Notes under the pieces: generated by a model
Told to the model about the DNA's origin: nothing
The model's database searches: none
Seen by the model: the letters and a program-made list of their open reading frames with translations, nothing else
Shown: positions 29,120 to 43,477 of the stretch, in pieces
How the letters are laid out: the number at the start of each line of letters is the position of its first letter
Position numbering within the stretch: position 1 is the first letter of the stretch
Program-made: the position numbers and the translations under genes
DNA from: Tortispora ganteri
Taxonomy: Eukaryota
Length of the DNA: 64,000 nucleotides
Assembly: GCA_003707115.1 (NCBI GenBank)
Contig: PPNB01000011.1
Coordinates: 186,001-250,000 of the forward strand
Direction of reading: 5' to 3'

Positions 29120-31075
29120 TTAATGACTATCTCTAGGAATGAACCTTTCGGCAATATTTCGGTAACGAGCCACAGATTTCGGAGCCATTCCTGCGTCCAA
29201 TTGCTCCACAGTATCACGGTATATCTCCTGCCACGGCGTTTGACTTTCTGGAATCTTGTAGCCGCCATTCTTCATAAGTTCCTGTTTTCTCTTTTCGATC
29301 TCTTCTTTAGGTAGCAGAATATCCGCTGCGCGTTTGTTTAAATCGATCCTTAGACGGTCACCATTCTTTAAAATAGCCAATCCTTGCGATAAAGCGGCTT
29401 CAGGCGACGCATTAAGAATTGAAGGTGAACCACTCGTGCCTGACTGTCGGCCGTCACCAATACACGGCAGACTTGTTACATTCTGTTTCAATAAACGCGC
29501 AGGAGGTTGCATGTTGACTACCTCGGCGGCGCCAGGGTATCCAATGGGTCCAGCGCCGCGGATCAGCAAAATAGTGTGCTCGTCAATCTCCGGCAGGTTA
29601 TCGATGTTAGCATGGTAGTCTTCAGGACCGTCAAACACAACAACAGGTCCTTCAAATGCATTCGGATCATCAGGATTGCTCAAATATCTCTTTCTGAACT
29701 CTTCAGAGATCACACATGTCTTCATTATAGCAGAATCAAAGAGCGTGCCCTTAAGGTTCAAGAATCCAGCAGAAGCGACCATTGGCTCCTTGAACGACTT
29801 AATTACTCGACGGTCAGTAGAGAACTTTCCAGAGCAATTCTCGCCCATAGTTTTGCCGTTGACAGTCATAGCATTGGCGTGACCAATACCATTTGCAAGA
29901 AGTTCGGCCATAATCGCAGGAAGACCACCAGCGCGATAATATTCTTCACAGAGGTATTCACCAGCAGGTTGTATATTCAGCAGAAGAGGTACATGGTACC
30001 CGACACGTTCCCAGTCGTCGTTATTCAACGGTACACCGATGCACTTAGCAATAGCGTTCACGTGAATAGGCGCGTTTGTACTTCCGCCAATAGCAGTGTT
30101 GGCGACAATAGCGTTCTCGAAAGCCTCACGGACCAGAATGTCTGAAGGACGGATGTTCTGCTCGGTCAACTCTACAATACGAAGACCGGTCAGATACGCA
30201 CATTCACCGCGGTCACGGTACGGTGCAGGAATTGTAGCAGATCCGGGAAGAGCCATTCCAAGTGCTTCAGCCATGGCATTCATTGTAGACGCCGTGCCCA
30301 TGGTGTTGCAATGACCAACACTCGGAGCGCTACCTTCAGCAATCTCTGAGAACTGCTCTGTTGTAATTGCTCCTGTGGCATGGAGCTCCCTAGCCTTCCA
30401 AATCGCCGTTCCACTGCCTGCAAGCTCACCATTGTAGTAGCCGTTCAACATAGGGCCGACGTTCATAACGATCGCTGGTATGTTAAGCGTTGAGGCCGCC
30501 ATAAGACAGGCTGGTGTGGTTTTATCGCAGCCGGTGAGTAAAACAACGCCATCTATTGGGTAGCCAAAAAGAAGCTCAACTAATCCGAGATAAGCTAAAT
30601 TGCGATCCAGTGCAGGGCCAGGTCTTTTACCTGTTTCCTGGATCGGATGAACAGGGAACTCCAAGCACACGCCGCCGGCGGTACGAATACCTTCACGAAC
30701 ACGTTTTGCAAGTTCAAGATGGTGTCTGTTACATGGACTCAAGTCTGAGCCAGTTTGTGCAATACCAATAATCGGTTTTCCGCTTTTGAGTTCTTCTCTC
30801 GTAAGACCAAAGTTGAGATAACGCTCAATATGAAGAGCGGTAGCGCTAGGATCTTCCTTATTATCGAACCAAATCTTGCTGCGGTATTTCCTGTGAACTT
30901 TACCGTTCGCTAAACCGTTTGCTCCTGCCTTCTGCAAATCGCGTAAAAGTTTCTCAGCGCTAGCAGCTCTTTTCTCTGCCTCTTCTAACCGTACTTTAAG
31001 CTCTTCAGGTGAAAGCTGTGCAATTTCTTTTGCTTCTTGCTCTGCCTTTCCGCAGTTACAACCTTCGCATGCCAT
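29120..31075 (-). CDS. IlvD/Edd-family [2Fe-2S] dehydratase, XylD (D-xylonate dehydratase)-like
   Basis: [79 protein letters not shown] and terminal PRDSH. Confidence 0.9.
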
Positions 31076-31194
31076 TTTCGTTTCACGTCAGATTTAGCAA
31101 ACCAAAACAACCTGTTAGCCGACTGTAGGTTCACTTGCAACACCGATAAGAGAACATCTCTTATATATAAGACTACCCGTAGAATGGTTATAAT

Positions 31195-31550
31195 GTGGGG
31201 TAACACCCTCGAAAAAAATAAATCTGGCCAATGGGAACAAATGAAATAAATAAACGTGGGGTAGTTACACCCATGTCCCAACCCCTCGCCATCTTAACCC
31301 CCCTCCCCACATTCCTCTTTTGGATAACAGGCCGAACTATATTATAACGCTTTTAGTAGAAAATATACCCTTGAAAAAAATACCAAGAATCATCTGCCGC
31401 ATATTAAAAGTGAGGGGTTTTGGTTTATTTGACGTATATCGAAGCTACGAGAATGGCGGAAATCGATAAGCGTAAGTTATTGTTTTATTTTTAAGTTTCT
31501 CTTTTGAGGAAACAAAATGGAGGGGGCCAAGCTTTGTTAAATAGCCCCAC
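31195..31550. promoter_or_regulatory. Four Mig1/CreA-type GTGGGG boxes in the dehydratase promoter, with TATA at 31161-31170
   Basis: GTGGGG at 31195 and 31256; CCCCAC at 31305 and 31545. Several have an adjacent AT-rich flank. Confidence 0.55.
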
Positions 31551-31560
31551 AATCCGACGA

Positions 31561-33255
31561 CTAATAAAGACTGATATAGGCTAGATTGTCGGGCAACGCC
31601 TTGAATGTGTCAGGAATTGAAAGACCTTGAGTTCTCAGGCTCCAGACATGGGAAACGACGTCTAACAGCGGATGGACATTCGTCATACAAACCATCTCAA
31701 TGTCTTTGATCCTTGAGACAAAGTACTCGTACTGGTCTTCGCGTGCACATACACTGCCCATCAGCATCACAAAAGGCAGCGCCGCAGCAGTGCGCGAATT
31801 AGGATCGATCATGTCGACCTGCATTTGGATAGTCGAAACGAGCATCTCAGACTCAGACTCCAGCTTCTCTGGTCGCAAAAATATATAGAAATATATCATC
31901 GCAGCTGCATGAAAAGCTTCATCACAATGAACTAAATACCTTTCCTTTTTCTTCAAGATAGACGTCTCGCGTTTGTAATGATTCTCAACTTGTCGTTTCC
32001 AGAGCGCTAGTTCCAGCGCGTCCAAGTCATCCTTTGACGGCCGTTTAAACCGGCACCGCAAAATCTGGATAATCACTACTGTCAGATGTGATGAGAACCC
32101 ATAAAACAGATCAATCGCGTCATTTGCATCAGGATCCTCTATCCAGTGAGTCGTCCAGAAACTCAGCAAAAAATCCAGTCCTTCTATCACAGGCGGTGAA
32201 GGGGTAAAGTCCCGGAGCAGTCCTGCCGTCACTAGCGATATCGTGTAAGTCAGCCATTTCGCCAAGAACCACAGCTCAGAACTGGGCTGCTGACCATTCA
32301 GATTGCTCACGATCACCCTTAACACATTGGTCGCACCTACACAGTGCATCTCGACTAACGGAAGGTTGTTCTGAACAACATAACTCGTGGCCAGCGCCAG
32401 GCTGGCAGACATTTTAGCTAGCCCAGCAGGGCTATCTGATAATTTTGAGTCGTACAACGCATCTCGCAACCCTGTGAGCGAAGATATAATAAGCTCGTTC
32501 CGTGCGTTGTGGTCTTCTGCAAAGCTGAAGATTTTAAGTTGATGAATGTATGAAAGATGCAGAAGAGATGACATGAGAAAAGGGTAGTTGATAGCCATAG
32601 GAACAAGAGAGGATATAAAAGGCGTCGGAAGCATATGTACAGCACAAAACCTCGCAGTGCTGGTTATATAGAACTCCCATAGAGCGTCAGCATCGACTGA
32701 GCTGACAGAATCCGAAATGAGCGCCGGGCTTCGTCTGTTGTGGTATGTCATTTCCAGCGAGGGAGAGCTTTGCACACTTATTTCCTCGCTCAAAGCTTCG
32801 GGATCATCGTCAGTAGTGCAAATAGGGGTTTCAGTAGAGAAATCTGTGTCTGTGAGGTTTTGCAAAGGAAGTGGAAGATACGCGTCTACCACCGGAAAAA
32901 AGGTCGAGTCGGGGAGAGAAACTGGTATACTCGTTGGAGTTTCTATATTCTCAATGCTTTCTACCTTTTCTTTTGGTGGTTCTGCGTTCATTTCAAGTTC
33001 GGCGTCGGAAAGATAGCTGCGCCCTTTGTGAGAAGACGTTTTAATCTTGTGAGAGTTGTCCTGCATTCCCACATAAAACTGAAACAATCTGTACTCACAA
33101 TCGGAGTGCGCTTTGTTACATGATGCGCACCTTGGTCGTTCTTGCGAACAACGTCGCTTAAGTCGCTTACATCTTTCACAGTTTCCTCTGGATCTTACTG
33201 CTAAGCCGGCCTTCCGAGACTGGCTCTCAACCTTCTTCGTTTCTCGCGATAACAT
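31561..33255 (-). CDS. Zn(II)2Cys6 transcription factor with a fungal-specific TF domain
   Basis: RSRGNCERCKRLKRRCSQERPRCASCNKAHSDCEY binuclear cluster. Confidence 0.9.
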   Translation of the reverse strand: MLSRETKKVESQSRKAGLAVRSRGNCERCKRLKRRCSQERPRCASCNKAHSDCEYRLFQFYVGMQDNSHKIKTSSHKGRSYLSDAELEMNAEPPKEKVESIENIETPTSIPVSLPDSTFFPVVDAYLPLPLQNLTDTDFSTETPICTTDDDPEALSEEISVQSSPSLEMTYHNRRSPALISDSVSSVDADALWEFYITSTARFCAVHMLPTPFISSLVPMAINYPFLMSSLLHLSYIHQLKIFSFAEDHNARNELIISSLTGLRDALYDSKLSDSPAGLAKMSASLALATSYVVQNNLPLVEMHCVGATNVLRVIVSNLNGQQPSSELWFLAKWLTYTISLVTAGLLRDFTPSPPVIEGLDFLLSFWTTHWIEDPDANDAIDLFYGFSSHLTVVIIQILRCRFKRPSKDDLDALELALWKRQVENHYKRETSILKKKERYLVHCDEAFHAAAMIYFYIFLRPEKLESESEMLVSTIQMQVDMIDPNSRTAAALPFVMLMGSVCAREDQYEYFVSRIKDIEMVCMTNVHPLLDVVSHVWSLRTQGLSIPDTFKALPDNLAYISLY

Positions 33256-35472: not shown

Positions 35473-37701
35473 CTATCTATTAGCAGAGCTCGAGGCCATC
35501 TCCTCGGGCATGTGCTGCGGGAACTCATTTAGAATCGGCGATCCGTGCAGGCTAGGATACACATCCATGCCGGGCGATGGATTTTCCGCATAGTTTATGG
35601 TGTCATTCAAATTTTGGTGTGGTATCAATGAACCGTGCACTGCCTCGTTCATCATAGAGATCCTCTGATACTTTGCATCTTTGTCATTTCTTTCGTTGAC
35701 GTGCAGCAGCTGCGTGGGATGTTGTTGAAGCTCCTCCTCGTTCTCCGCTTCTCGGTCGCTGCTGCTGTCGCTGCAAGCGTCGTCATCATCGTCGTCGTCG
35801 TCATTATTTTCCCGGTCTTCATAGTGCGAGTTATCACTCTGTAATCTCTCCGGGTGCATTATATATGGCCCATGACTGCCGCCGCCTTGTAGTATCCTGT
35901 CCCGCAGCCCTATGGGCTGACACGACACCATCAAATTGACGCGGCCAAGAGCAAACTCCATAGGAGCAAACCCACGGCAGGATATCTGCAGGGCCCAGCG
36001 GAACTCGCTGACGAGACCCGCATACGCCTCCACTTCTTCGGCGCTCGAAGATGTTACCATTAACAGTGTAGCAAATGTGCCAATAAGCGCAAAATGCTGC
36101 GCAGCCTGTGCGTGCCAGAATGCCTCTAGATGTTCCCTTCTGAGACTTTTCGTGAACTCAATAGCAGCCACCACGCGTGCTCTCGCTGCATTTCGACAGA
36201 CCAGTACTAATTCGGGAGGAGAAAGCTCTGTTAGAGATTGGATAATGCGCCGGTGCAGCATGATCTCAGCAGCAAAGTATGCCAGATGTAGGTACCCTGT
36301 AGAAGAGAACATTCTAGATTGCTCATAGTTCATGTGAAGACACTCTGGAAGCGATTTGTACCATTGTCGCAATCGTGCCTGTACGGGTTCAGCTGCATTC
36401 AGTACATTTTCCACGTCCACTAGTGTATTTAGCGACTTCAAGGAAAAGAATATGTCGTGAATATCTCCAACAATTTCGCTCAAGCCTACAAACTCCTTGA
36501 ATAACAGTCTTCCAGTTTCTGAATCAGCGCTTTCAGGTTTTCTTATCTCTTCTGTTCCAGTTTTCTCGCGGAAATCCATAGCCTGGACTTTTTTCACTAG
36601 CCAGTCGGTGTGGTTGATACGAGACGAATGGCCAGTTATCAGAGATCCCCATTTGTCTTCAGCCCAAACAGCCCATGCCAGTCGTCTTCTGAGACCTCTT
36701 TCCCATTTAGGAATCTTCCAGTTACTGCAGTCAAGATGCAATCCTAATTCTTCAGAGATTGCCACGACTTGCGACAGCAAGGCCCAGTTACCACTGGTGC
36801 CGGAACGCACGCGTTGTAACAGAAGCAGCCCAGCCTGGACGGTAGACAGTTTGGGCGACTGCACTACAAACGAGAAAGTTCTCAACGCTATTGAATCTAA
36901 AGCTCGTAGGTCTGGTTTAGGCAGCGCTGCAAGCGTAGTGTCATAATCCCACCAGTTCAATGCCAGCATGTAAACAGCAGCGAGTAGTGATGGAGAAAAC
37001 TCCCGATATGACCTCTTATACTTCTCTAAAAACACTTCACGGTGGAGTATAGGGTAATTGGGGTGAATAATGCGGAAATAGAGATCAATTAAAGCAGCAC
37101 CATGTGGGGCTATAATGCGCTCGATCGCATCACAGTCTTGCAGAAGTTCCTGGTATCCATCGAGGTACTGGTCCTTTTCCATTATAAACACAGTAGATGG
37201 CGCGACGCGTCTGAACTTAACGCTAGGAGATATTTCCACTTCATCTAAAGAGTCGAACTTGACGTGCTCGAGAACTTTCGGCTCGAACGAAGAAGTAGGG
37301 CCGAGCAGAGCCGAGCATCGTGGAAATTGTAATCCTAGAGTTTTTTTTAACAGTGAATATCCCTTTATTTCTGAATAATCTGATATGCTCTTATCTGTGG
37401 GTGAATTATCTGTAGTCATTGACTCGAGTATAGGCGGTTTAGAGGATTTCTTACGCTTTGGTAAAGGTCCTGCATTGAACGTGCATGTCTGGTTCCGCAA
37501 TCGACACAAAATGCAATCTTTCTTACCGTCTTCAAACACACATCGCGACTTCCTCTTCCTACACATATCACATGGCCTATTAACTGGCTTGGCTTTAATT
37601 GAATCACTAGGAGAAATTGTCTGCTGGCTCGAATCCATCTCGTCCTCTTCTTTCTGCGCAGGCATATGATTATGGGTCTTCGCTAGTGATCGTTTAGCCA
37701 T
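35473..37701 (-). CDS. DAL81: Zn2Cys6 transcription factor Dal81/TamA
   Basis: RPCDMCRKRKSRC cluster; IAPHGAALIDLYFRIIHPNYPILHREVFLEKYKRSYRE and WKIPKWERGLRRRLAWAVW are characteristic of Dal81. Confidence 0.88.
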   Translation of the reverse strand: MAKRSLAKTHNHMPAQKEEDEMDSSQQTISPSDSIKAKPVNRPCDMCRKRKSRCVFEDGKKDCILCRLRNQTCTFNAGPLPKRKKSSKPPILESMTTDNSPTDKSISDYSEIKGYSLLKKTLGLQFPRCSALLGPTSSFEPKVLEHVKFDSLDEVEISPSVKFRRVAPSTVFIMEKDQYLDGYQELLQDCDAIERIIAPHGAALIDLYFRIIHPNYPILHREVFLEKYKRSYREFSPSLLAAVYMLALNWWDYDTTLAALPKPDLRALDSIALRTFSFVVQSPKLSTVQAGLLLLQRVRSGTSGNWALLSQVVAISEELGLHLDCSNWKIPKWERGLRRRLAWAVWAEDKWGSLITGHSSRINHTDWLVKKVQAMDFREKTGTEEIRKPESADSETGRLLFKEFVGLSEIVGDIHDIFFSLKSLNTLVDVENVLNAAEPVQARLRQWYKSLPECLHMNYEQSRMFSSTGYLHLAYFAAEIMLHRRIIQSLTELSPPELVLVCRNAARARVVAAIEFTKSLRREHLEAFWHAQAAQHFALIGTFATLLMVTSSSAEEVEAYAGLVSEFRWALQISCRGFAPMEFALGRVNLMVSCQPIGLRDRILQGGGSHGPYIMHPERLQSDNSHYEDRENNDDDDDDDDACSDSSSDREAENEEELQQHPTQLLHVNERNDKDAKYQRISMMNEAVHGSLIPHQNLNDTINYAENPSPGMDVYPSLHGSPILNEFPQHMPEEMASSSANR

Positions 37702-38056: not shown

Positions 38057-41000
38057 TTACTTTAAGACAGCAATAAGATCTCCAGCTTCCACAAAGTCGC
38101 CCGACTTGTGGCATACTTTCAGAACTTCGCCATCTTGCGGTGCAGTGACCGTCATCTCAGTCTTCATAGCCTCAACAACAATGAGTCCTTGACCCTTAAC
38201 AACCTTATCTCCAGGCTTTACGAGAGCCTTCCAGAACCGTCCTGCAACTTCACCGTAGACCATCACAGCATCGTCGCCAAAGTCTTCGTCCTCAACAGCG
38301 TTGCTCATGCTGTTTTGTTCTAGCTCGTCGTTTGCAACCTGGATCAGTTTGGCAATCTCCTCAGTGCCCTCCATTACGTTCTTCTGGTACTCTTCAATGC
38401 TCGTCTTGTTCTCCTCAATCCACTTGCAGTACTCGCCGTGATTAAACATAGACTGCGTAATATCAATTGTGTATCGGCCGTGCTTTACTTCTTCAGACAA
38501 CTTGTCGAGCTCCTCCTCGCTAATAGGATAGTACTCAATGATGTCAAAGGGATCGACAAGCCACGGTCTATTCTGCTGACCAAGTACAAGCTTATCCCAG
38601 ATAGGAATCGTGCGGCCAATCAATTGGTATCCTCCGGGCGAGTCCATGCCGTAGATGCACATGTACATGCCTCCAAGACCAACTGTGCCTTCGGGAGTGA
38701 ATGTACGCGAAGGATTGTACTTTGTACCAACAAGACGATCCCTGGGGTCAAGTGGAACAGCGCACGGTGCTCCAAGGAACACATCGCCAACACCGAGAAC
38801 AAGGAACTGTGCTCTGTACATAAGATCTTTGACCTTGTCGCGGCTGTCGAGCTGATTTACCTTCTGTAAGAAGTCCACATTATTGGGCAACCAGGGAGCC
38901 TTCGACCTAATAGTCTCTTGGTATCGTTGCACTGCAGCAAGGGTCTTAGTATCTTCGAAAGCCATGGGTAACCGAACACGTCTGCAAGGAACAGACCAAT
39001 TGTCGTCAAACACCAATTCGTTCTCATACTTGATCAACGTGTCTAATAACTTCTTCTGACTCGTTTTGGTGCCATCAAATTCAATAAGTACTGATCTTAC
39101 ACCAGGCGACATCTCAATAACACCAGTGGTATAATTCTTGAAAACAAGTTGAGTCAGTCTATAAACTCTGTAAGGCATGCGCAAATCTAAAAGGTTATCA
39201 CCGTATTCAACGAGAATATATCTGTCTCCCGCTTGTCTATAAACGATCTTAGGAATTCCATCCCTAGCCTCGCTCCTGTACAGCACAGGATCTTCAAGTT
39301 TCGACTGAATAGACAGAACAAGGTCTTCAGGTACCTCGTCCTTCAGGTTTTCAATGACATCATCGTACGCCTTCTTTAACTGCAGAGCGCCCTGAAAATC
39401 AACAAGCACAAACTGGATCATGTCGCCAGGCTTCAATTGTCCAACTTTCCACATCTCGGCTTCGACAACTGTGACAGGACAAACAAAACCGCCTAATGAT
39501 GGGCCGTCACAGGTTAAGATAACAGGCTCGTCTCCCGTGAAGTTCAAAGCACCAATAGCGTAGACATAATCGTGCGCATTAGATGGATGCAAACCAGCTT
39601 CTCCACCGTCCTTACGAGCCCATTCAGGTTTGGGTCCGATCAGACGTACACCAAAGCGGTTTGAGTTATAGTGTACCTTCCATTCGGATGATAACAAGGT
39701 ATCTATGCTCTGCGGTAAGAAGAAATCCGGAGATGTATGCGGTCCAGCCATAACACCAATCTTCCAAGTCTTAGGATACTTAGGAATGACGGCGGTTGAA
39801 GGCTCTGCAGGTTCGCTCACAGGAGCAGGGATCTCACAGGCTTTGACGGATTCGTCACCGAGGAAAATGACATCTCCAAACTTTAGAACACGTCCGTTAA
39901 ACCCGCCCATGTTTCCAAGCGCAAAGGTTGATCGGCTTCCAAGATACTCGGGGACGTCAATACCGCCTCGAATGGCAATATACGATCGGCAGCCGTTTAT
40001 AAGTTTTCCAACGCTCAGTTTCTGTCCTGATCTAATTTGTATAGGCCTCCACATAGACACTGGCTCGTCATCAATAGTGACTTTAGCTTCACCACCGCAA
40101 ACAGCTGCGATACCGTCTCTGTGGAACAAGAGAGTAGGGCCCATCAATGTACATTCAATTCCAGGCGCATTGGAATGGTTGCCAACAAGACGGTTAGCCA
40201 TACGGAAAGCATAGTCATCCATAGGTCCAGAAGGAGGAACACCGATATGCCAAAGAAGCTTGCGTCCAGGATAGTCTTGAACAGTTGTGTAGCTTCCTGG
40301 TACGGTAACTTCAACAGCATTAGGCTTGTATGAGAAAGTATCAAGAACACGTGTGTAAACATCGCCAGATCTGAAGAAAGAAGTGCGTGCAATTGCACGA
40401 AGATAGTCAATGTTGGTAACAATTCCTCCTACACTGGTTTCGTCCAAAGCTTTGATAAGTTTATCAAGGGCCTCGTTTCTGTCCTTGCCGTATACAATGA
40501 TCTTGGCAATCATAGGATCGTAATTGGCAGAAACCTCAGATCCCTTAGAGATCCAAGTATCTATACGAGCGTCATCAGGGAATGATACATTAGTGATCTG
40601 TCCAGGTGAAGGATTAAAATCTTTGGCAGGATTTTCAGCATAGAGCCGCGCTTCCATTGATGCACCTTTGATCTTAATCTTCTGAGAGAAATCAGGAGGA
40701 GTATCTGCAGCAACTAACAGCATCCATTCGACCAAATCTAAGCCAGTGACTTCTTCGGTTACTGGATGTTCAACCTGAAGACGAGTGTTGACTTCCAAGA
40801 AGTAAAATTCTTCACGCACTGAGTCGTATATGAACTCAACCGTGCCAGCACATTTATACTTCATAGTTTTCGCAAGGCTCTCAGCAGACTGTCGCAACCC
40901 GATGCGCACTTTCTCAGGAATAAACGGACCAGGTGTCTCTTCAATGACTTTCTGATTGCGACGTTGCAAAGAGCAGTCACGTTCACCAAGAGAAATAGCA

Positions 41001-43477
41001 CCACCACGTCCGTCACCGAATATCTGCACCTCGACGTGACGCGAATTGTCAATGAAGCGTTCAAGGAAAACACCAGAATCGTTAAAGAACTGTTGGCCTA
41101 AACGGCGTACTGAATCATATGCAGCAACTAACTCCTCTTCGTTGTTGCAACGTTGCAAGCCGATTCCACCACCTCCAGCAGTAGACTTCAGCATTATAGG
41201 GTATTCGATCTTCTTGGCAGCAGCAACTGTTTCCTCTAACGAGGCTAGCAGACCAGTTCCAGGAACAAGAGGCACCTTTGCTTTCTCAGCAATCTCACGA
41301 GCAGAGTGTTTAAGGCCCATAGATTTGATTACGGAGGCAGAAGGGCCAACAAAAACAATAGAATTCTTCTCGCAAGCTTCTGCAAAATCCGCGTTTTCGG
41401 AGAGGAAACCATAGCCTGGAATAATAGCCTGGGCATTGGTTTTCTTAGCAGCTGCAATAATCTTTTCAATAGACAGATACGTTTCTGCAGCAGTGTCGCC
41501 TTCTAAGAAAACTGCCTCGTCTGCTTCAAGAGCGTGAGGAGCATACCGATCTGAGGCAGAGTAGACCGAAACGGATCCTATTTTCATCTTTTTTAAAGTT
41601 TTCAGAATACGCACGGCAATTTCGCCTCTGTTAGCTATTAAAACTTTCTCAAAAGGGCGCTTAACTGAGGAAGTCTTGGTGGATTCGATGTACTTCCGCC
41701 ACCCTCCATATTGCGAGATATCGACAGCAGCGGGATCGGAGTACCCGGTCTCTTCACATATAAATCCCTTAACAATATCGCCAGAAGCCAGCTCAACAGA
41801 TCCAATTCCTAGAGGCCCCGGGATCAGAGAAACAAACTTGCCGAAGTTCTCAACAGGGATGTCGTAGGTCTCGATTTCAATAGAAACGCCGCCAGACACT
41901 ACTTTACGAAGACCCGGTTTCGCTGGAACCGTACCAGCAAGAGCATATAGCTTGTAATTCGGAGACGTAGAGGTCTTTTCTACGAAGACAGCCTTTGCAT
42001 CTTCCAGTTGATAGTGAAGCGGCATGCCCTTTAAGTGGGCGCCTACTACTGACACTCTCACAGTATCAGCAGGTTTAGGCAGGCCAGGGATAAGTTTGTC
42101 TTCGTTTTTAGCAATTACAGCATTTGAGTTTCCTAGAAGACGCTCCTTAGGAGACAAAAACTTCTCAGCGAGGTCCAGGAGTGCATAATCGTTGAACTTC
42201 CTGGATATCAGAGTGACGCCGAAAGGAAGACCGTCTTTGCGAAAACCGACGGGAATAGCCAACGCAGATAAGTCACTTAGGTTGACAAAGTTAGTATAAG
42301 TGCCTTGTTTGCTGTTGCATGCGATAGGCTCTTTAGCTATGTCGTCGAAAGAAGGCACCAAAGGACAAGTAGGCACGATGAACCCGTCTACGTCTGCAAA
42401 CTGGATTTCTATCTGTCTTAGAATACTCTTTCTAAGGTATTCGTACTTAAAAGCATCCTCAGCTGAGAAATTTTCGGCCTTGAGAATGATTTCGCGTACT
42501 ACAGGGTCCATATCTTCTTTGTGTTCTTTAATAAAATCAGAAATCGCAGCGTATCGTTCAGCTACCCAAGGACCTTCGTAGAGGCATGCGGCCAGCTTGT
42601 AAAGGATATCAAAACTTTTGGGAACGAGATCGACGCCGATCTGCTTGAAATTGTCTAGCGCTGTATCGTAAAGCTCTGGGTTCTGGGTGTCATTATACCA
42701 TAGTGGTTTATCCGGTATAGCGAACCTAGGTGACGGGCCAAAAGTGGTCAAAGGATGTTCTGGCAACGCACGAGAATAACCATCACGTGGGTCGTACTTT
42801 GCGACTATGGAGAAGACGAGCTGAGCGTCAGCCAAAACCAGAGCAAAGATCGACACGGTATCGAGAGATCTACATGCGGGTATGACACCTGTGCACGAGA
42901 GCAGACCTAGCGAGGGTTTGAGACCGATGATGTTGTTCAGACCAGCAGGAACACGGCCAGAGCCGGCGGTGTCAGTGCCGAAGGAGAAAGGTGCAATTCC
43001 GCGTGCGACAGTTGACGCGGAGCCAGAAGATGAGCCACCGGAAACGTGGTTAGGTGAGAAAGCGTTTGGCACCTTGCCGTAAGGAGACCGGGTGCCCACT
43101 AGGCCAGTGGCAAACTGATCGAGGTTACTTTTTCCGAGAACAATGGCGCCAGCTTTCTTGATGTGATCGACTACTACGGCGTCCTCAGCAGCCAAGTAGG
43201 AGTAGGAAGGACATGCAGCGGTAGAGTTAAACCCAGCAACGTCGATATTATCCTTTACAACGCACGGAACGCCGTATAAGGGAAGATCTTTAGCATGAGG
43301 CAGCTTTTGCAGAGCTTCCCATTGCGAGGTGATGAGGCTAGGAGTTGCGATTTGGATCCAGGCAGGGTCGTCGGAGCTGAGGGTAGATAGATGGTCTAAG
43401 AGGAATGAAAGACCTTCGGAGCTCTTGAGACCCAGCATGTGGTCTCGCCACTGAGAAATAGTCCAGCCTTGCACCAT
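38057..43477 (-). CDS. DUR1,2: Urea amidolyase (allophanate hydrolase-urea carboxylase fusion)
   Basis: Amidase signature GGSSSGS/GTDTAGSGRVPA, biotin carboxylase VLIANRGEIA and ERDCSLQRRNQKV, CT domains and biotinyl EAMKTE. 1806 aa. Confidence 0.98.
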   Translation of the reverse strand: MVQGWTISQWRDHMLGLKSSEGLSFLLDHLSTLSSDDPAWIQIATPSLITSQWEALQKLPHAKDLPLYGVPCVVKDNIDVAGFNSTAACPSYSYLAAEDAVVVDHIKKAGAIVLGKSNLDQFATGLVGTRSPYGKVPNAFSPNHVSGGSSSGSASTVARGIAPFSFGTDTAGSGRVPAGLNNIIGLKPSLGLLSCTGVIPACRSLDTVSIFALVLADAQLVFSIVAKYDPRDGYSRALPEHPLTTFGPSPRFAIPDKPLWYNDTQNPELYDTALDNFKQIGVDLVPKSFDILYKLAACLYEGPWVAERYAAISDFIKEHKEDMDPVVREIILKAENFSAEDAFKYEYLRKSILRQIEIQFADVDGFIVPTCPLVPSFDDIAKEPIACNSKQGTYTNFVNLSDLSALAIPVGFRKDGLPFGVTLISRKFNDYALLDLAEKFLSPKERLLGNSNAVIAKNEDKLIPGLPKPADTVRVSVVGAHLKGMPLHYQLEDAKAVFVEKTSTSPNYKLYALAGTVPAKPGLRKVVSGGVSIEIETYDIPVENFGKFVSLIPGPLGIGSVELASGDIVKGFICEETGYSDPAAVDISQYGGWRKYIESTKTSSVKRPFEKVLIANRGEIAVRILKTLKKMKIGSVSVYSASDRYAPHALEADEAVFLEGDTAAETYLSIEKIIAAAKKTNAQAIIPGYGFLSENADFAEACEKNSIVFVGPSASVIKSMGLKHSAREIAEKAKVPLVPGTGLLASLEETVAAAKKIEYPIMLKSTAGGGGIGLQRCNNEEELVAAYDSVRRLGQQFFNDSGVFLERFIDNSRHVEVQIFGDGRGGAISLGERDCSLQRRNQKVIEETPGPFIPEKVRIGLRQSAESLAKTMKYKCAGTVEFIYDSVREEFYFLEVNTRLQVEHPVTEEVTGLDLVEWMLLVAADTPPDFSQKIKIKGASMEARLYAENPAKDFNPSPGQITNVSFPDDARIDTWISKGSEVSANYDPMIAKIIVYGKDRNEALDKLIKALDETSVGGIVTNIDYLRAIARTSFFRSGDVYTRVLDTFSYKPNAVEVTVPGSYTTVQDYPGRKLLWHIGVPPSGPMDDYAFRMANRLVGNHSNAPGIECTLMGPTLLFHRDGIAAVCGGEAKVTIDDEPVSMWRPIQIRSGQKLSVGKLINGCRSYIAIRGGIDVPEYLGSRSTFALGNMGGFNGRVLKFGDVIFLGDESVKACEIPAPVSEPAEPSTAVIPKYPKTWKIGVMAGPHTSPDFFLPQSIDTLLSSEWKVHYNSNRFGVRLIGPKPEWARKDGGEAGLHPSNAHDYVYAIGALNFTGDEPVILTCDGPSLGGFVCPVTVVEAEMWKVGQLKPGDMIQFVLVDFQGALQLKKAYDDVIENLKDEVPEDLVLSIQSKLEDPVLYRSEARDGIPKIVYRQAGDRYILVEYGDNLLDLRMPYRVYRLTQLVFKNYTTGVIEMSPGVRSVLIEFDGTKTSQKKLLDTLIKYENELVFDDNWSVPCRRVRLPMAFEDTKTLAAVQRYQETIRSKAPWLPNNVDFLQKVNQLDSRDKVKDLMYRAQFLVLGVGDVFLGAPCAVPLDPRDRLVGTKYNPSRTFTPEGTVGLGGMYMCIYGMDSPGGYQLIGRTIPIWDKLVLGQQNRPWLVDPFDIIEYYPISEEELDKLSEEVKHGRYTIDITQSMFNHGEYCKWIEENKTSIEEYQKNVMEGTEEIAKLIQVANDELEQNSMSNAVEDEDFGDDAVMVYGEVAGRFWKALVKPGDKVVKGQGLIVVEAMKTEMTVTAPQDGEVLKVCHKSGDFVEAGDLIAVLK

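Follow-up and report, generated by a model that had tools for sequence, protein, structure and literature searches.

A XylD-type sugar-acid dehydratase gene in the yeast Tortispora ganteri and the ascomycete-wide family to which it belongs

Introduction

Does the yeast Tortispora ganteri carry a native module for the breakdown of sugar acids, with a dehydratase of bacterial type and a regulator of its own? The question is posed by a stretch of 64,000 nucleotides (contig PPNB01000011.1 of assembly GCA_003707115.1, positions 186,001 to 250,000 of the forward strand), called the window here and numbered from its first letter. In it a first-pass annotation, made from the letters alone, joined a putative sugar-acid dehydratase gene, resembling that for xylonate dehydratase (XylD), to a gene for a Zn2Cys6 transcription factor. 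Both genes lie on the minus strand, at 29120-31075 and 31561-33255, and the gap of 485 bp between them (31076-31560) is as first described. The dehydratase open reading frame (ORF) encodes 651 residues without an intron, and the upstream gene encodes 564.

The proposal of a dehydratase module with its own regulator has survived in part. The enzyme is of the XylD type, has no presequence and bears an N-terminal extension, as proposed, whereas the link to the regulator is not supported and pathway partners are missing from the window. The reading that best explains the evidence, to which a probability of about 0.62 is assigned, is that the ORF encodes an aldonic-acid dehydratase of XylD type, most likely cytosolic, belonging to an ascomycete-wide family that probably entered the fungi long ago, perhaps under glucose repression and most likely having the Zn2Cys6 gene as a chance neighbour. 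Interest shifts with this reading to the family itself, a large and as yet uncharacterised group of ascomycete XylD-type enzymes that carries a conserved, fungus-only module made of a Cys cluster and a helix.

A dehydratase of the XylD type

The dehydratase ORF comes from a list made with the standard genetic code and was placed by comparison with Pfam, NCBIfam and PDB. Both Pfam domains of the IlvD/EDD superfamily are recognised, ILVD_EDD_N at 339 bits (E 3e-101, gathering cut-off 27) and ILV_EDD_C at 136 bits (E 1e-39, gathering cut-off 27.7), and between them they span residues 100-629, which makes the protein a member of the superfamily. For the NCBIfam model NF009560 (cut-off 684) the score is 952 bits, with query residues 60-651 aligned to profile positions 6-595. 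The equivalog models score below their cut-offs: L-arabinonate dehydratase at 483 bits (cut-off 882), the ilvD models TIGR00110 at 338 (618) and NF009103 at 221 (710), edd at 167 (708) and YjhG/YagF at 140 (808). Because the ilvD cut-off is not reached, the protein is not Ilv3-like.

A PDB sequence search gives 7m3k, a Brucella protein, as the top match (892 bits) and Caulobacter crescentus XylD (CcXyDHT, 5oyn) at 760 bits, with L-arabinonate dehydratase at 437 bits and the dihydroxy-acid dehydratases that stand below 8ej0 in the list at 229-239 bits. The alignment to 5oyn is full-length and end-to-end, with 58% identity. An AlphaFold2 model computed from an alignment of 44 sequences (A2; mean predicted local distance difference test score, pLDDT, 83.8) superposes on 7m3k with a template modelling (TM) score of 0.96 and 66% identity, and on 5oyn with a TM score of 0.95 and 58% identity. 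In the same structure comparison identity is 39-40% to arabinonate dehydratase and 25-31% to dihydroxy-acid dehydratases, fungal AstD included. The assignment to XylD and not to mitochondrial Ilv3, which the first-pass annotation had made from the N-terminal block, is upheld by the NCBIfam and PDB scores alike.

Yeast Ilv3 and the dihydroxy-acid dehydratases share the superfamily and the CDK and GHC motifs with the Tortispora protein, but they differ from it in the identity and cut-offs just given and at the N terminus. Judged by composition only, the first 25 residues of the Tortispora protein hold 6 Asp/Glu and 2 Lys/Arg; they are net acidic and so unlike a mitochondrial presequence, in agreement with the earlier statement that none is present. 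By sequence comparison and modelling, the classification as a XylD-type, non-mitochondrial Fe-S sugar-acid enzyme is well supported.

Active site and likely substrates

Residue roles described for Caulobacter XylD in the accessible part of PMC5770437 were transferred through the ungapped alignment to 5oyn; all positions given are on the minus strand. Three cysteines are predicted ligands of a [2Fe-2S] cluster: Cys115 in SPC115N (30731-30733), equivalent to Cys60 of the Caulobacter enzyme; Cys183 in GC183-D184-K185-T (30521-30529), equivalent to Cys128; and Cys256 in GHC256NT (30308-30310), whose counterpart is Cys200 in the numbering of the paper and 201 by offset from the 5oyn chain. The first of these is the ligand specific to the subfamily. 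The Mg2+ site would comprise Asp184 (Asp129) and Lys185 (Lys130, carbamylated in Caulobacter). In the motif GDGRQS545GT547 (Ser545-Gly546-Thr547 at 29435-29443), Ser545 corresponds to Ser490, the proposed catalytic base, and Thr547 to its partner Thr492. Trp226 matches Trp171, which is hydrogen-bonded to Thr492, and Arg229 matches Arg174, which forms a salt bridge to the C-terminal carboxylate. The C-terminal His651 (29123-29125) corresponds to His591, which reaches the active site of the partner subunit. The three Fe-S Cys motifs, the DGRQSGT motif and the terminal His noted in the first-pass annotation (SPC115N, CDKT, GHC256NT, H651) are all present.

The substrate-recognition helix is likewise retained. 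Its core, Leu81...Glu84-Arg85 (30821-30835), aligns with Leu26, Glu29 and Arg30 of Caulobacter XylD, the determinants named in section 11 of PMC5770437, where arabinonate dehydratase is given Tyr, Gly and Trp instead. The N-terminal block, RSKIWFDN..., aligns to 5oyn without a gap, which bears out the resemblance to Caulobacter XylD remarked on earlier. Across the 44 sequences of A2 the named cluster, Mg, catalytic, helix and C-terminal residues are invariant, save Leu81 and Glu84.

By analogy with Caulobacter XylD, the Tortispora protein would be an aldonic-acid dehydratase that depends on a [2Fe-2S] cluster and Mg2+, lies outside the mitochondria, most likely in the cytosol, and converts a 2,3-dihydroxy sugar acid to a 2-keto-3-deoxy acid by removal of water. 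Ser545 would act as the base, Cys115, Cys183 and Cys256 would hold the cluster, and Asp184 and carbamylated Lys185 would hold Mg2+; the partner subunit would complete the active site with its recognition helix (Leu81, Glu84, Arg85) and its C-terminal His651. Since the recognition helix matches that of the xylonate enzyme, substrates of D-xylonate or D-gluconate configuration are the most likely. D-Gluconate is also accepted by Caulobacter XylD, according to the available portion of PMC9795676.

Several observations speak against such a substrate, and they belong to the alternative that competes best. That alternative leaves fold and chemistry unchanged and supposes a substrate of L-arabinonate, D-galactonate or D-fuconate configuration, used for instance in a non-phosphorylative galactose or arabinose route. 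Residues 146-151 of an active-site loop read QETGKR in the Tortispora protein and in 7m3k, whereas Caulobacter XylD has FENCRR (HPIFENCRRP) at this place, so specificity may differ. The depositors' title of 7m3k, the top PDB match, is 'galactonate dehydratase', and some fungal relatives are entered as 'L-arabonate dehydratase'; and a KDPG/KHG aldolase lies near the dehydratase homologue in a Microvirga and a Sphingomonas locus (L005 and L064). Activity, substrate or expression data for fungal members were not found in the literature searched. The galactonate and arabonate names are, however, annotations and not assays, and the helix carries Leu, Glu and Arg, in contrast to the Tyr, Gly and Trp found in arabinonate dehydratase. 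The L-arabinonate dehydratase of Rhizobium leguminosarum (5j83/5j84), which shares the fold and the cofactor set (PMC5770437, accessible part), differs in that helix, in its identity of 39-40% and in the equivalog cut-off, which the Tortispora protein does not reach (483 against 882). D-Galactonate dehydratase, moreover, is assigned to dgdA/dgdB in the Aspergillus niger sugar model (PMC9781776). A substrate of this second kind is on balance rather unlikely, and D-xylonate or D-gluconate configuration is retained as the preferred assignment.

In the same alignments (A1/A2), a Cys in an R-x-(E/Q)-C-A-Y motif (Cys292 of the dehydratase) is found in fungi at a position held by Met, Ala, Val or Ile in close bacterial relatives. 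The Cys of an FPCH motif, present in many bacterial relatives, is Val or Thr in fungi.

The upstream Zn2Cys6 gene and the promoter

The gene at 31561-33255 was recognised by the Pfam domains Zn_clus and Fungal_trans_2 and by a regular expression for the Zn2Cys6 signature, with the Zn cluster encoded at 33097-33180. It was proposed to encode a dedicated regulator that forms, with the dehydratase, a two-gene catabolic unit. The two genes are in tandem, co-oriented and 485 bp apart, and Zn2Cys6 regulators are often paired with fungal catabolic genes.

Two other eukaryotic loci with the dehydratase allow this pairing to be compared, the yeast-like contig L001, with 10 kb on either side of the gene, and the intron-bearing contig L003, with 9.6 kb upstream only and the contig ending inside the gene. 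A tblastn search with the Zn2Cys6 protein gave no match in either, and a six-frame search for the signature, which found the three known genes of the window, found none in L001 or L003, so the gene pair is conserved in neither of the two (for L003, on the upstream side only). The L001 neighbours are EMG1, a P5A-ATPase, PSF1, a Rad26-like gene and Sec7; they are unlike those of the window, and the locus is therefore not syntenic with it. Among the upstream ORFs of L003 the only match is an SBF-like transporter about 8 kb away. In the promoter of the dehydratase no two CGG/CCG triplets are 17 nt or less apart. With three Zn2Cys6 genes among about 29 ORFs in 64 kb, a Zn2Cys6 neighbour by chance is not improbable, and in the ESM Atlas the protein falls among generic ascomycete Fungal_trans_2 clusters. 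A dedicated regulator is thus improbable; the Zn2Cys6 gene most likely stands beside the dehydratase by chance.

A second Zn2Cys6 gene (35473-37701; Fungal_trans, PF04082) stands directly upstream of a urea amidolyase gene of 1806 codons (38057-43477; DUR1,2-like), on the same strand, so that a regulator gene adjoins an enzyme gene here as well.

The 485-bp promoter (31076-31560, minus strand) may point to regulation of another sort. A TATA-like run, TTATATATAA, lies at about 31161-31170, some 90 nt ahead of the dehydratase ATG, and GTGGGG/CCCCAC sites occur at 31195-31200, 31256-31261, 31305-31310 and 31545-31550. These are 4 of the 13 GTGGGG sites of the window, in a region where about 0.1 would be expected, and three of the four have the extended form AAYGTGGGG. 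GTGGGG resembles the consensus of Mig1/CreA boxes. If the boxes are of this type, glucose repression would follow, which would fit a catabolic enzyme, and the promoter suggests it. Two things count against this part of the reading: the link depends on resemblance to a consensus, and the cluster was seen first and the count made afterwards.

An ascomycete-wide family and its history

The best match to the dehydratase is CANCADRAFT_33052 of T. caseinolytica NRRL Y-17796, with 97% identity, on a contig of 323 kb. Next come four full-length proteins of 645-652 residues (P0003, P0004, P0005, P0008) with 67-68% identity over full coverage, and then hundreds of bacterial proteins of about 600 residues with 69-72% identity, the named ones from Microvirga, Methylobacterium, Enterovirga, Salinarimonas and Beijerinckiaceae. 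In a search of representatives at 50% identity the XylD-like family appears as one full-length representative and fragments, with P0155, P0240 and P0255 as N-terminal fragments. The range within fungi was sought with the N-terminal 200 residues of P0240 against longer proteins. Among the 120 matches listed, 59 bear names of filamentous ascomycetes, in the genera Aspergillus, Penicillium, Monascus, Paecilomyces, Penicilliopsis, Geosmithia, Fusarium, Xylaria, Hypoxylon, Poronia, Discula, Malbranchea, Exophiala, Fonsecaea, Rhinocladiella and Aureobasidium; these fungal proteins have 613-668 residues, except for one fragment of 432. They are entered under names as various as 'dihydroxy-acid dehydratase', 'IlvD/Edd family dehydratase', 'L-arabonate dehydratase' and 'hypothetical'. 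A cluster of 658-residue length in the ESM Atlas is 81% Eukaryota, mostly Ascomycota, and a metagenome scan with P0003 gave 50 pattern matches, none of which was confirmed. The notion of a yeast speciality is thus abandoned: the Tortispora gene is one ordinary member of an ascomycete-wide family.

Three quick IQ-TREE runs (LG+C20 with posterior mean site frequencies) were made, with support from the Shimodaira-Hasegawa-like approximate likelihood ratio test (SH-aLRT). In the first (56 rows), the seven eukaryotic rows form one clade (97) that is sister (95) to nine Methylobacteriaceae-like rows. The second (54 rows) took in 18 named filamentous fungi; its 25 fungal rows all fall in a single clade (95), within which a yeast-like clade with 7 rows (91) is sister to the 18 filamentous ones (99), and the fungi group at 99 with seven rows of Methylobacteriaceae/Enterovirga/Salinarimonas type. 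Removal of the extension columns in the third left the topology of the second unchanged, with supports of 92, 93, 99 and 99. The structure 7m3k was left out of the trees. The adjacency of the fungal family to Methylobacteriaceae-like enzymes is well supported by these trees. The structure 7m3k and the Methylobacteriaceae-like IlvD/Edd dehydratases are the closest sequences (66-72% identity over residues ~60-651), with a loop identical to that of the Tortispora protein; unlike it, they are bacterial, of about 600 residues, lack a Cys-rich extension and lie beside bacterial regulators, transporters and dehydrogenases. Biochemical data on them were not found in the literature searched. Xylonate dehydratase activity has been measured, according to the accessible portion of PMC11775059, for XylDs of Agrobacterium, Rhizobium, Sphingomonas, Burkholderia xenovorans and two Rhodobacterales, and the groups with these measured enzymes bracket the fungal clade, matched by group name and not protein by protein.

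Where the family came from is less firm, and here too there is evidence on the other side. The bacterial rows were hand-picked from loci nearest the query (35 of 80, then 16 of 80) together with named proteins, the outgroups sit on long branches, and an approximately unbiased (AU) test does not reject a single clade of the 26 ingroup bacterial rows (difference in log-likelihood 3.7, p 0.40). Given the AU result and the long-branch root, nesting within the Alphaproteobacteria, and hence the donor, depends on the root, and no proven donor is claimed. The rooting, and with it a transfer from the Methylobacteriaceae-like group to fungi, is only suggested by the sequences. The simplest history would be one old acquisition before the split of yeasts from filamentous ascomycetes, followed by later losses; the patchy retention that had been offered as one possibility fits the trees. 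On this history the family probably entered fungi once, long ago, with XylD-like enzymes of Methylobacteriaceae-like Alphaproteobacteria as its nearest kin; the Cys-cluster-plus-helix module would then have been gained, introns would have been acquired in some lineages, such as that of L003, and the gene would have been lost from most yeasts.

The trees also bear on the idea that the enzyme is a second, cytosolic dihydroxy-acid dehydratase, serving branched-chain amino-acid or pantothenate metabolism or acting as a self-resistance copy. Database entries named 'dihydroxy-acid dehydratase' would favour it, as would the promiscuity that is possible in the IlvD/EDD family (PMC5770437 and PMC9795676, accessible parts). 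All three trees, however, group the protein with XylD-like enzymes, and neither the failure to reach both ilvD cut-offs nor the 25-31% identity to solved dihydroxy-acid dehydratases, AstD among them, fits such a role, which is very improbable. That the gene came recently into Tortispora from a bacterium, or is a bacterial contaminant in the assembly, has next to no likelihood and is already contradicted, for despite 69-72% identity to Microvirga and Methylobacterium proteins the gene has ordinary yeast genes on both flanks, recurs on the 323-kb T. caseinolytica contig, shares its fungus-only extension with filamentous fungi, groups with them and not within a bacterial genus, and has a codon usage typical of the window (distance from other window ORFs 0.104, third lowest of 29; GC content at third codon positions 0.43, range 0.39-0.54) and thus no sign of recent arrival.

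Two further features of the fungal sequences were seen. The copy at L003:9644-11566 bears introns, with at least four frame changes, on a contig of 54% GC; it starts MPCEGCTCG, and its place in the trees is within the yeast-like clade, at the end of a long branch. Within the filamentous clade the branching departs from the species tree, Fusarium nematophilum grouping with Penicillium and Aspergillus sclerotioniger at SH-aLRT 100, which hints at paralogues or at transfer from fungus to fungus.

The N-terminal extension

The first 62 residues (MACEGCNCG...; 30890-31075, minus strand) are missing from bacterial relatives, which start at query residue ~60, that is, after the extension, and are kept in fungi. 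As no internal Met occurs before about residue 192, the extension belongs to the ORF. It bears a Cys cluster, C3-x2-C6-x-C8 (CEGCNC, 31052-31069), defined by its sequence and by conservation of the central C-X2-C. In the AlphaFold2 model a short helix (residues 10-19) is followed by a long amphipathic one (residues 23-52, 30920-31009; block pLDDT 67-83), with pLDDT below 50 for residues 1-7 and low confidence for the linker 50-61. An IEDY-like motif and then a heptad-like helix can be aligned across fungi, and weak coiled-coil-type Pfam noise was seen; helix 23-52 is probably a coiled coil.

The extension is also present in P0003, P0004, P0005 and P0008, in contigs L001 and L003, in the three N-terminal fragments and in the named filamentous fungi. 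A census was taken of 126 sequences, namely the 120 listed relatives of the P0240 fragment, five yeast-like proteins and the window protein. At least 40 residues precede the RS..WF anchor in 70 of the 126, and 68 of these 70 have a Cys-rich extension with a central C-X2-C and 3-5 Cys. The spacing is C-Xn-C-X2-C-X-C in 40; in 6, the yeast-like group including the window protein, it is C-X2-C-X-C only; and 22 have other spacings (3-5 Cys). In the two exceptions the first 45 residues are free of Cys; these are apparently bacterial proteins whose start was called too far upstream. The IEDY-like motif stands ahead of the helix in 67 of the 70, and no Cys precedes the anchor in any of the 56 sequences that lack the extension. 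The ~60-residue extension reported at first, with its MACEGCNCG start and a coiled coil, is therefore genuine and conserved, at 62 residues with a helix predicted at 23-52. By sequence comparison it is a conserved, fungus-only module in which a Cys cluster is combined with an IEDY-like motif and a long helix.

Its Cys spacing may be like that of the Fe-S motif of CIAPIN1 (Dre2/anamorsin), a likeness not borne out by profile match: CIAPIN1 (PF05093) gave nothing significant, with residues 1-62 at E 0.28 and one of 44 full-length members at E 0.68. A PDB search with the extension likewise returned nothing significant (best E 1.1), nor did Pfam, and the N-terminal 60 residues of P0005, used as a query, matched nothing but the query, 60 residues being too weak at that database size. 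As a speculation of low likelihood, the extension may handle metal or an Fe-S cluster; a [2Fe-2S] XylD of bacterial type might in this way obtain its cluster, hold on to it or regulate it in the eukaryotic cytosol. If so, transfer of the module could ease the XylD bottleneck of engineered yeast.

Place in fungal metabolism

Oxidative non-phosphorylative pentose pathways are placed in bacteria and archaea only by a review of 2022, in its accessible part (PMC9795676). If the speculative role of the extension is true, the module would also be the mark of an oxidative, non-phosphorylative route for sugar acids that is native to ascomycetes and absent from the fungal sugar models now in use. For A. 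niger, older biochemical work reportedly described a non-phosphorylated gluconate route, with a gluconate dehydratase and a 2-keto-3-deoxygluconate (KDG) aldolase; by analogy, a XylD-type enzyme would be a candidate for the gluconate dehydratase step. The products of gaaB, dgdA and dgdB are presumably enolase-superfamily enzymes. It is to these three genes, and not to the XylD-type family, that the A. niger sugar model gives the gluconate and galactonate dehydratase steps (PMC9781776), and the family points to a sugar-acid step that has possibly been overlooked in fungal metabolism. The 'Weimberg pathway' of M. thermophila, in the portion of PMC9869559 at hand, is an engineered one that combines Caulobacter xylD with the native xylose dehydrogenase, and no native dehydratase figures in that portion. 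Neither a study of the fungal XylD-type family nor one of CANCADRAFT_33052 was found in open-access PMC and bioRxiv.

Poor activation of bacterial XylD limits Weimberg/Dahms engineering in yeast, and only bacterial enzymes are given as tested in the accessible part of PMC11775059. Members of an ascomycete-wide XylD-type family, being most likely already in a eukaryotic cytosol, would therefore be ready engineering candidates, and the Cys-rich module adds to their interest in this respect.

Gene neighbourhoods

The other 27 ORFs of at least 150 codons scanned in the window are ordinary budding-yeast genes, among them those for mevalonate-PP (diphosphate) decarboxylase, Dus3, a tricalbin, a Pab1-like protein, a HECT ligase, a lipase-like hydrolase, a CAP-domain protein, a rhomboid, urea amidolyase, aminopeptidase I, a cyclin, a histone deacetylase, phenylalanyl-tRNA synthetase (PheRS) and Rer1. 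Against a catabolic role it has to be set that among the 29 ORFs of the window there is no sugar dehydrogenase, lactonase or semialdehyde dehydrogenase, and no 2-keto-3-deoxy-acid dehydratase or aldolase; nor does any FAH-family or aldehyde-dehydrogenase gene, for the Weimberg steps, occur among the selected ORFs of 17 bacterial loci. With no gene for a partner enzyme among its 29 ORFs, the window does not bear out the native Weimberg/Dahms module first envisaged. In this the Tortispora gene, known here from sequence, is unlike that of Caulobacter XylD. The two enzymes are alike in their Cys ligands, Asp-Lys pair, Ser/Thr pair, Trp226, Arg229, helix residues and C-terminal His, but the Tortispora gene lies in a eukaryote and has no xylXABCD-type operon around it, and its product has the loop QETGKR in place of FENCRR and the 62-residue Cys-cluster/helix module that Caulobacter XylD lacks.

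The 17 bacterial loci were scanned at E 1e-5 or 1e-8. In a subset of 12 of them, 5 have GntR/FCD regulators nearby, a short-chain dehydrogenase is close by in 7 of the 17, and tripartite ATP-independent periplasmic (TRAP) transporter genes occur in two (L016 and L083). A Halomonas locus (L071) holds a xylan/xylose set of GH43 xylosidase, ATP-binding cassette (ABC) transporter, aldose epimerase, SMP-30 lactonase and PfkB kinase. Together with the KDPG/KHG aldolase loci considered above, these neighbours give the bacterial relatives the look of enzymes of sugar-acid catabolism, with downstream routes that vary. One bacterial relative, P0002, has 746 residues and contains the block from about 'VGPMLNGW' to 'GGSTNAPIH' twice, through internal duplication or as an assembly chimera.

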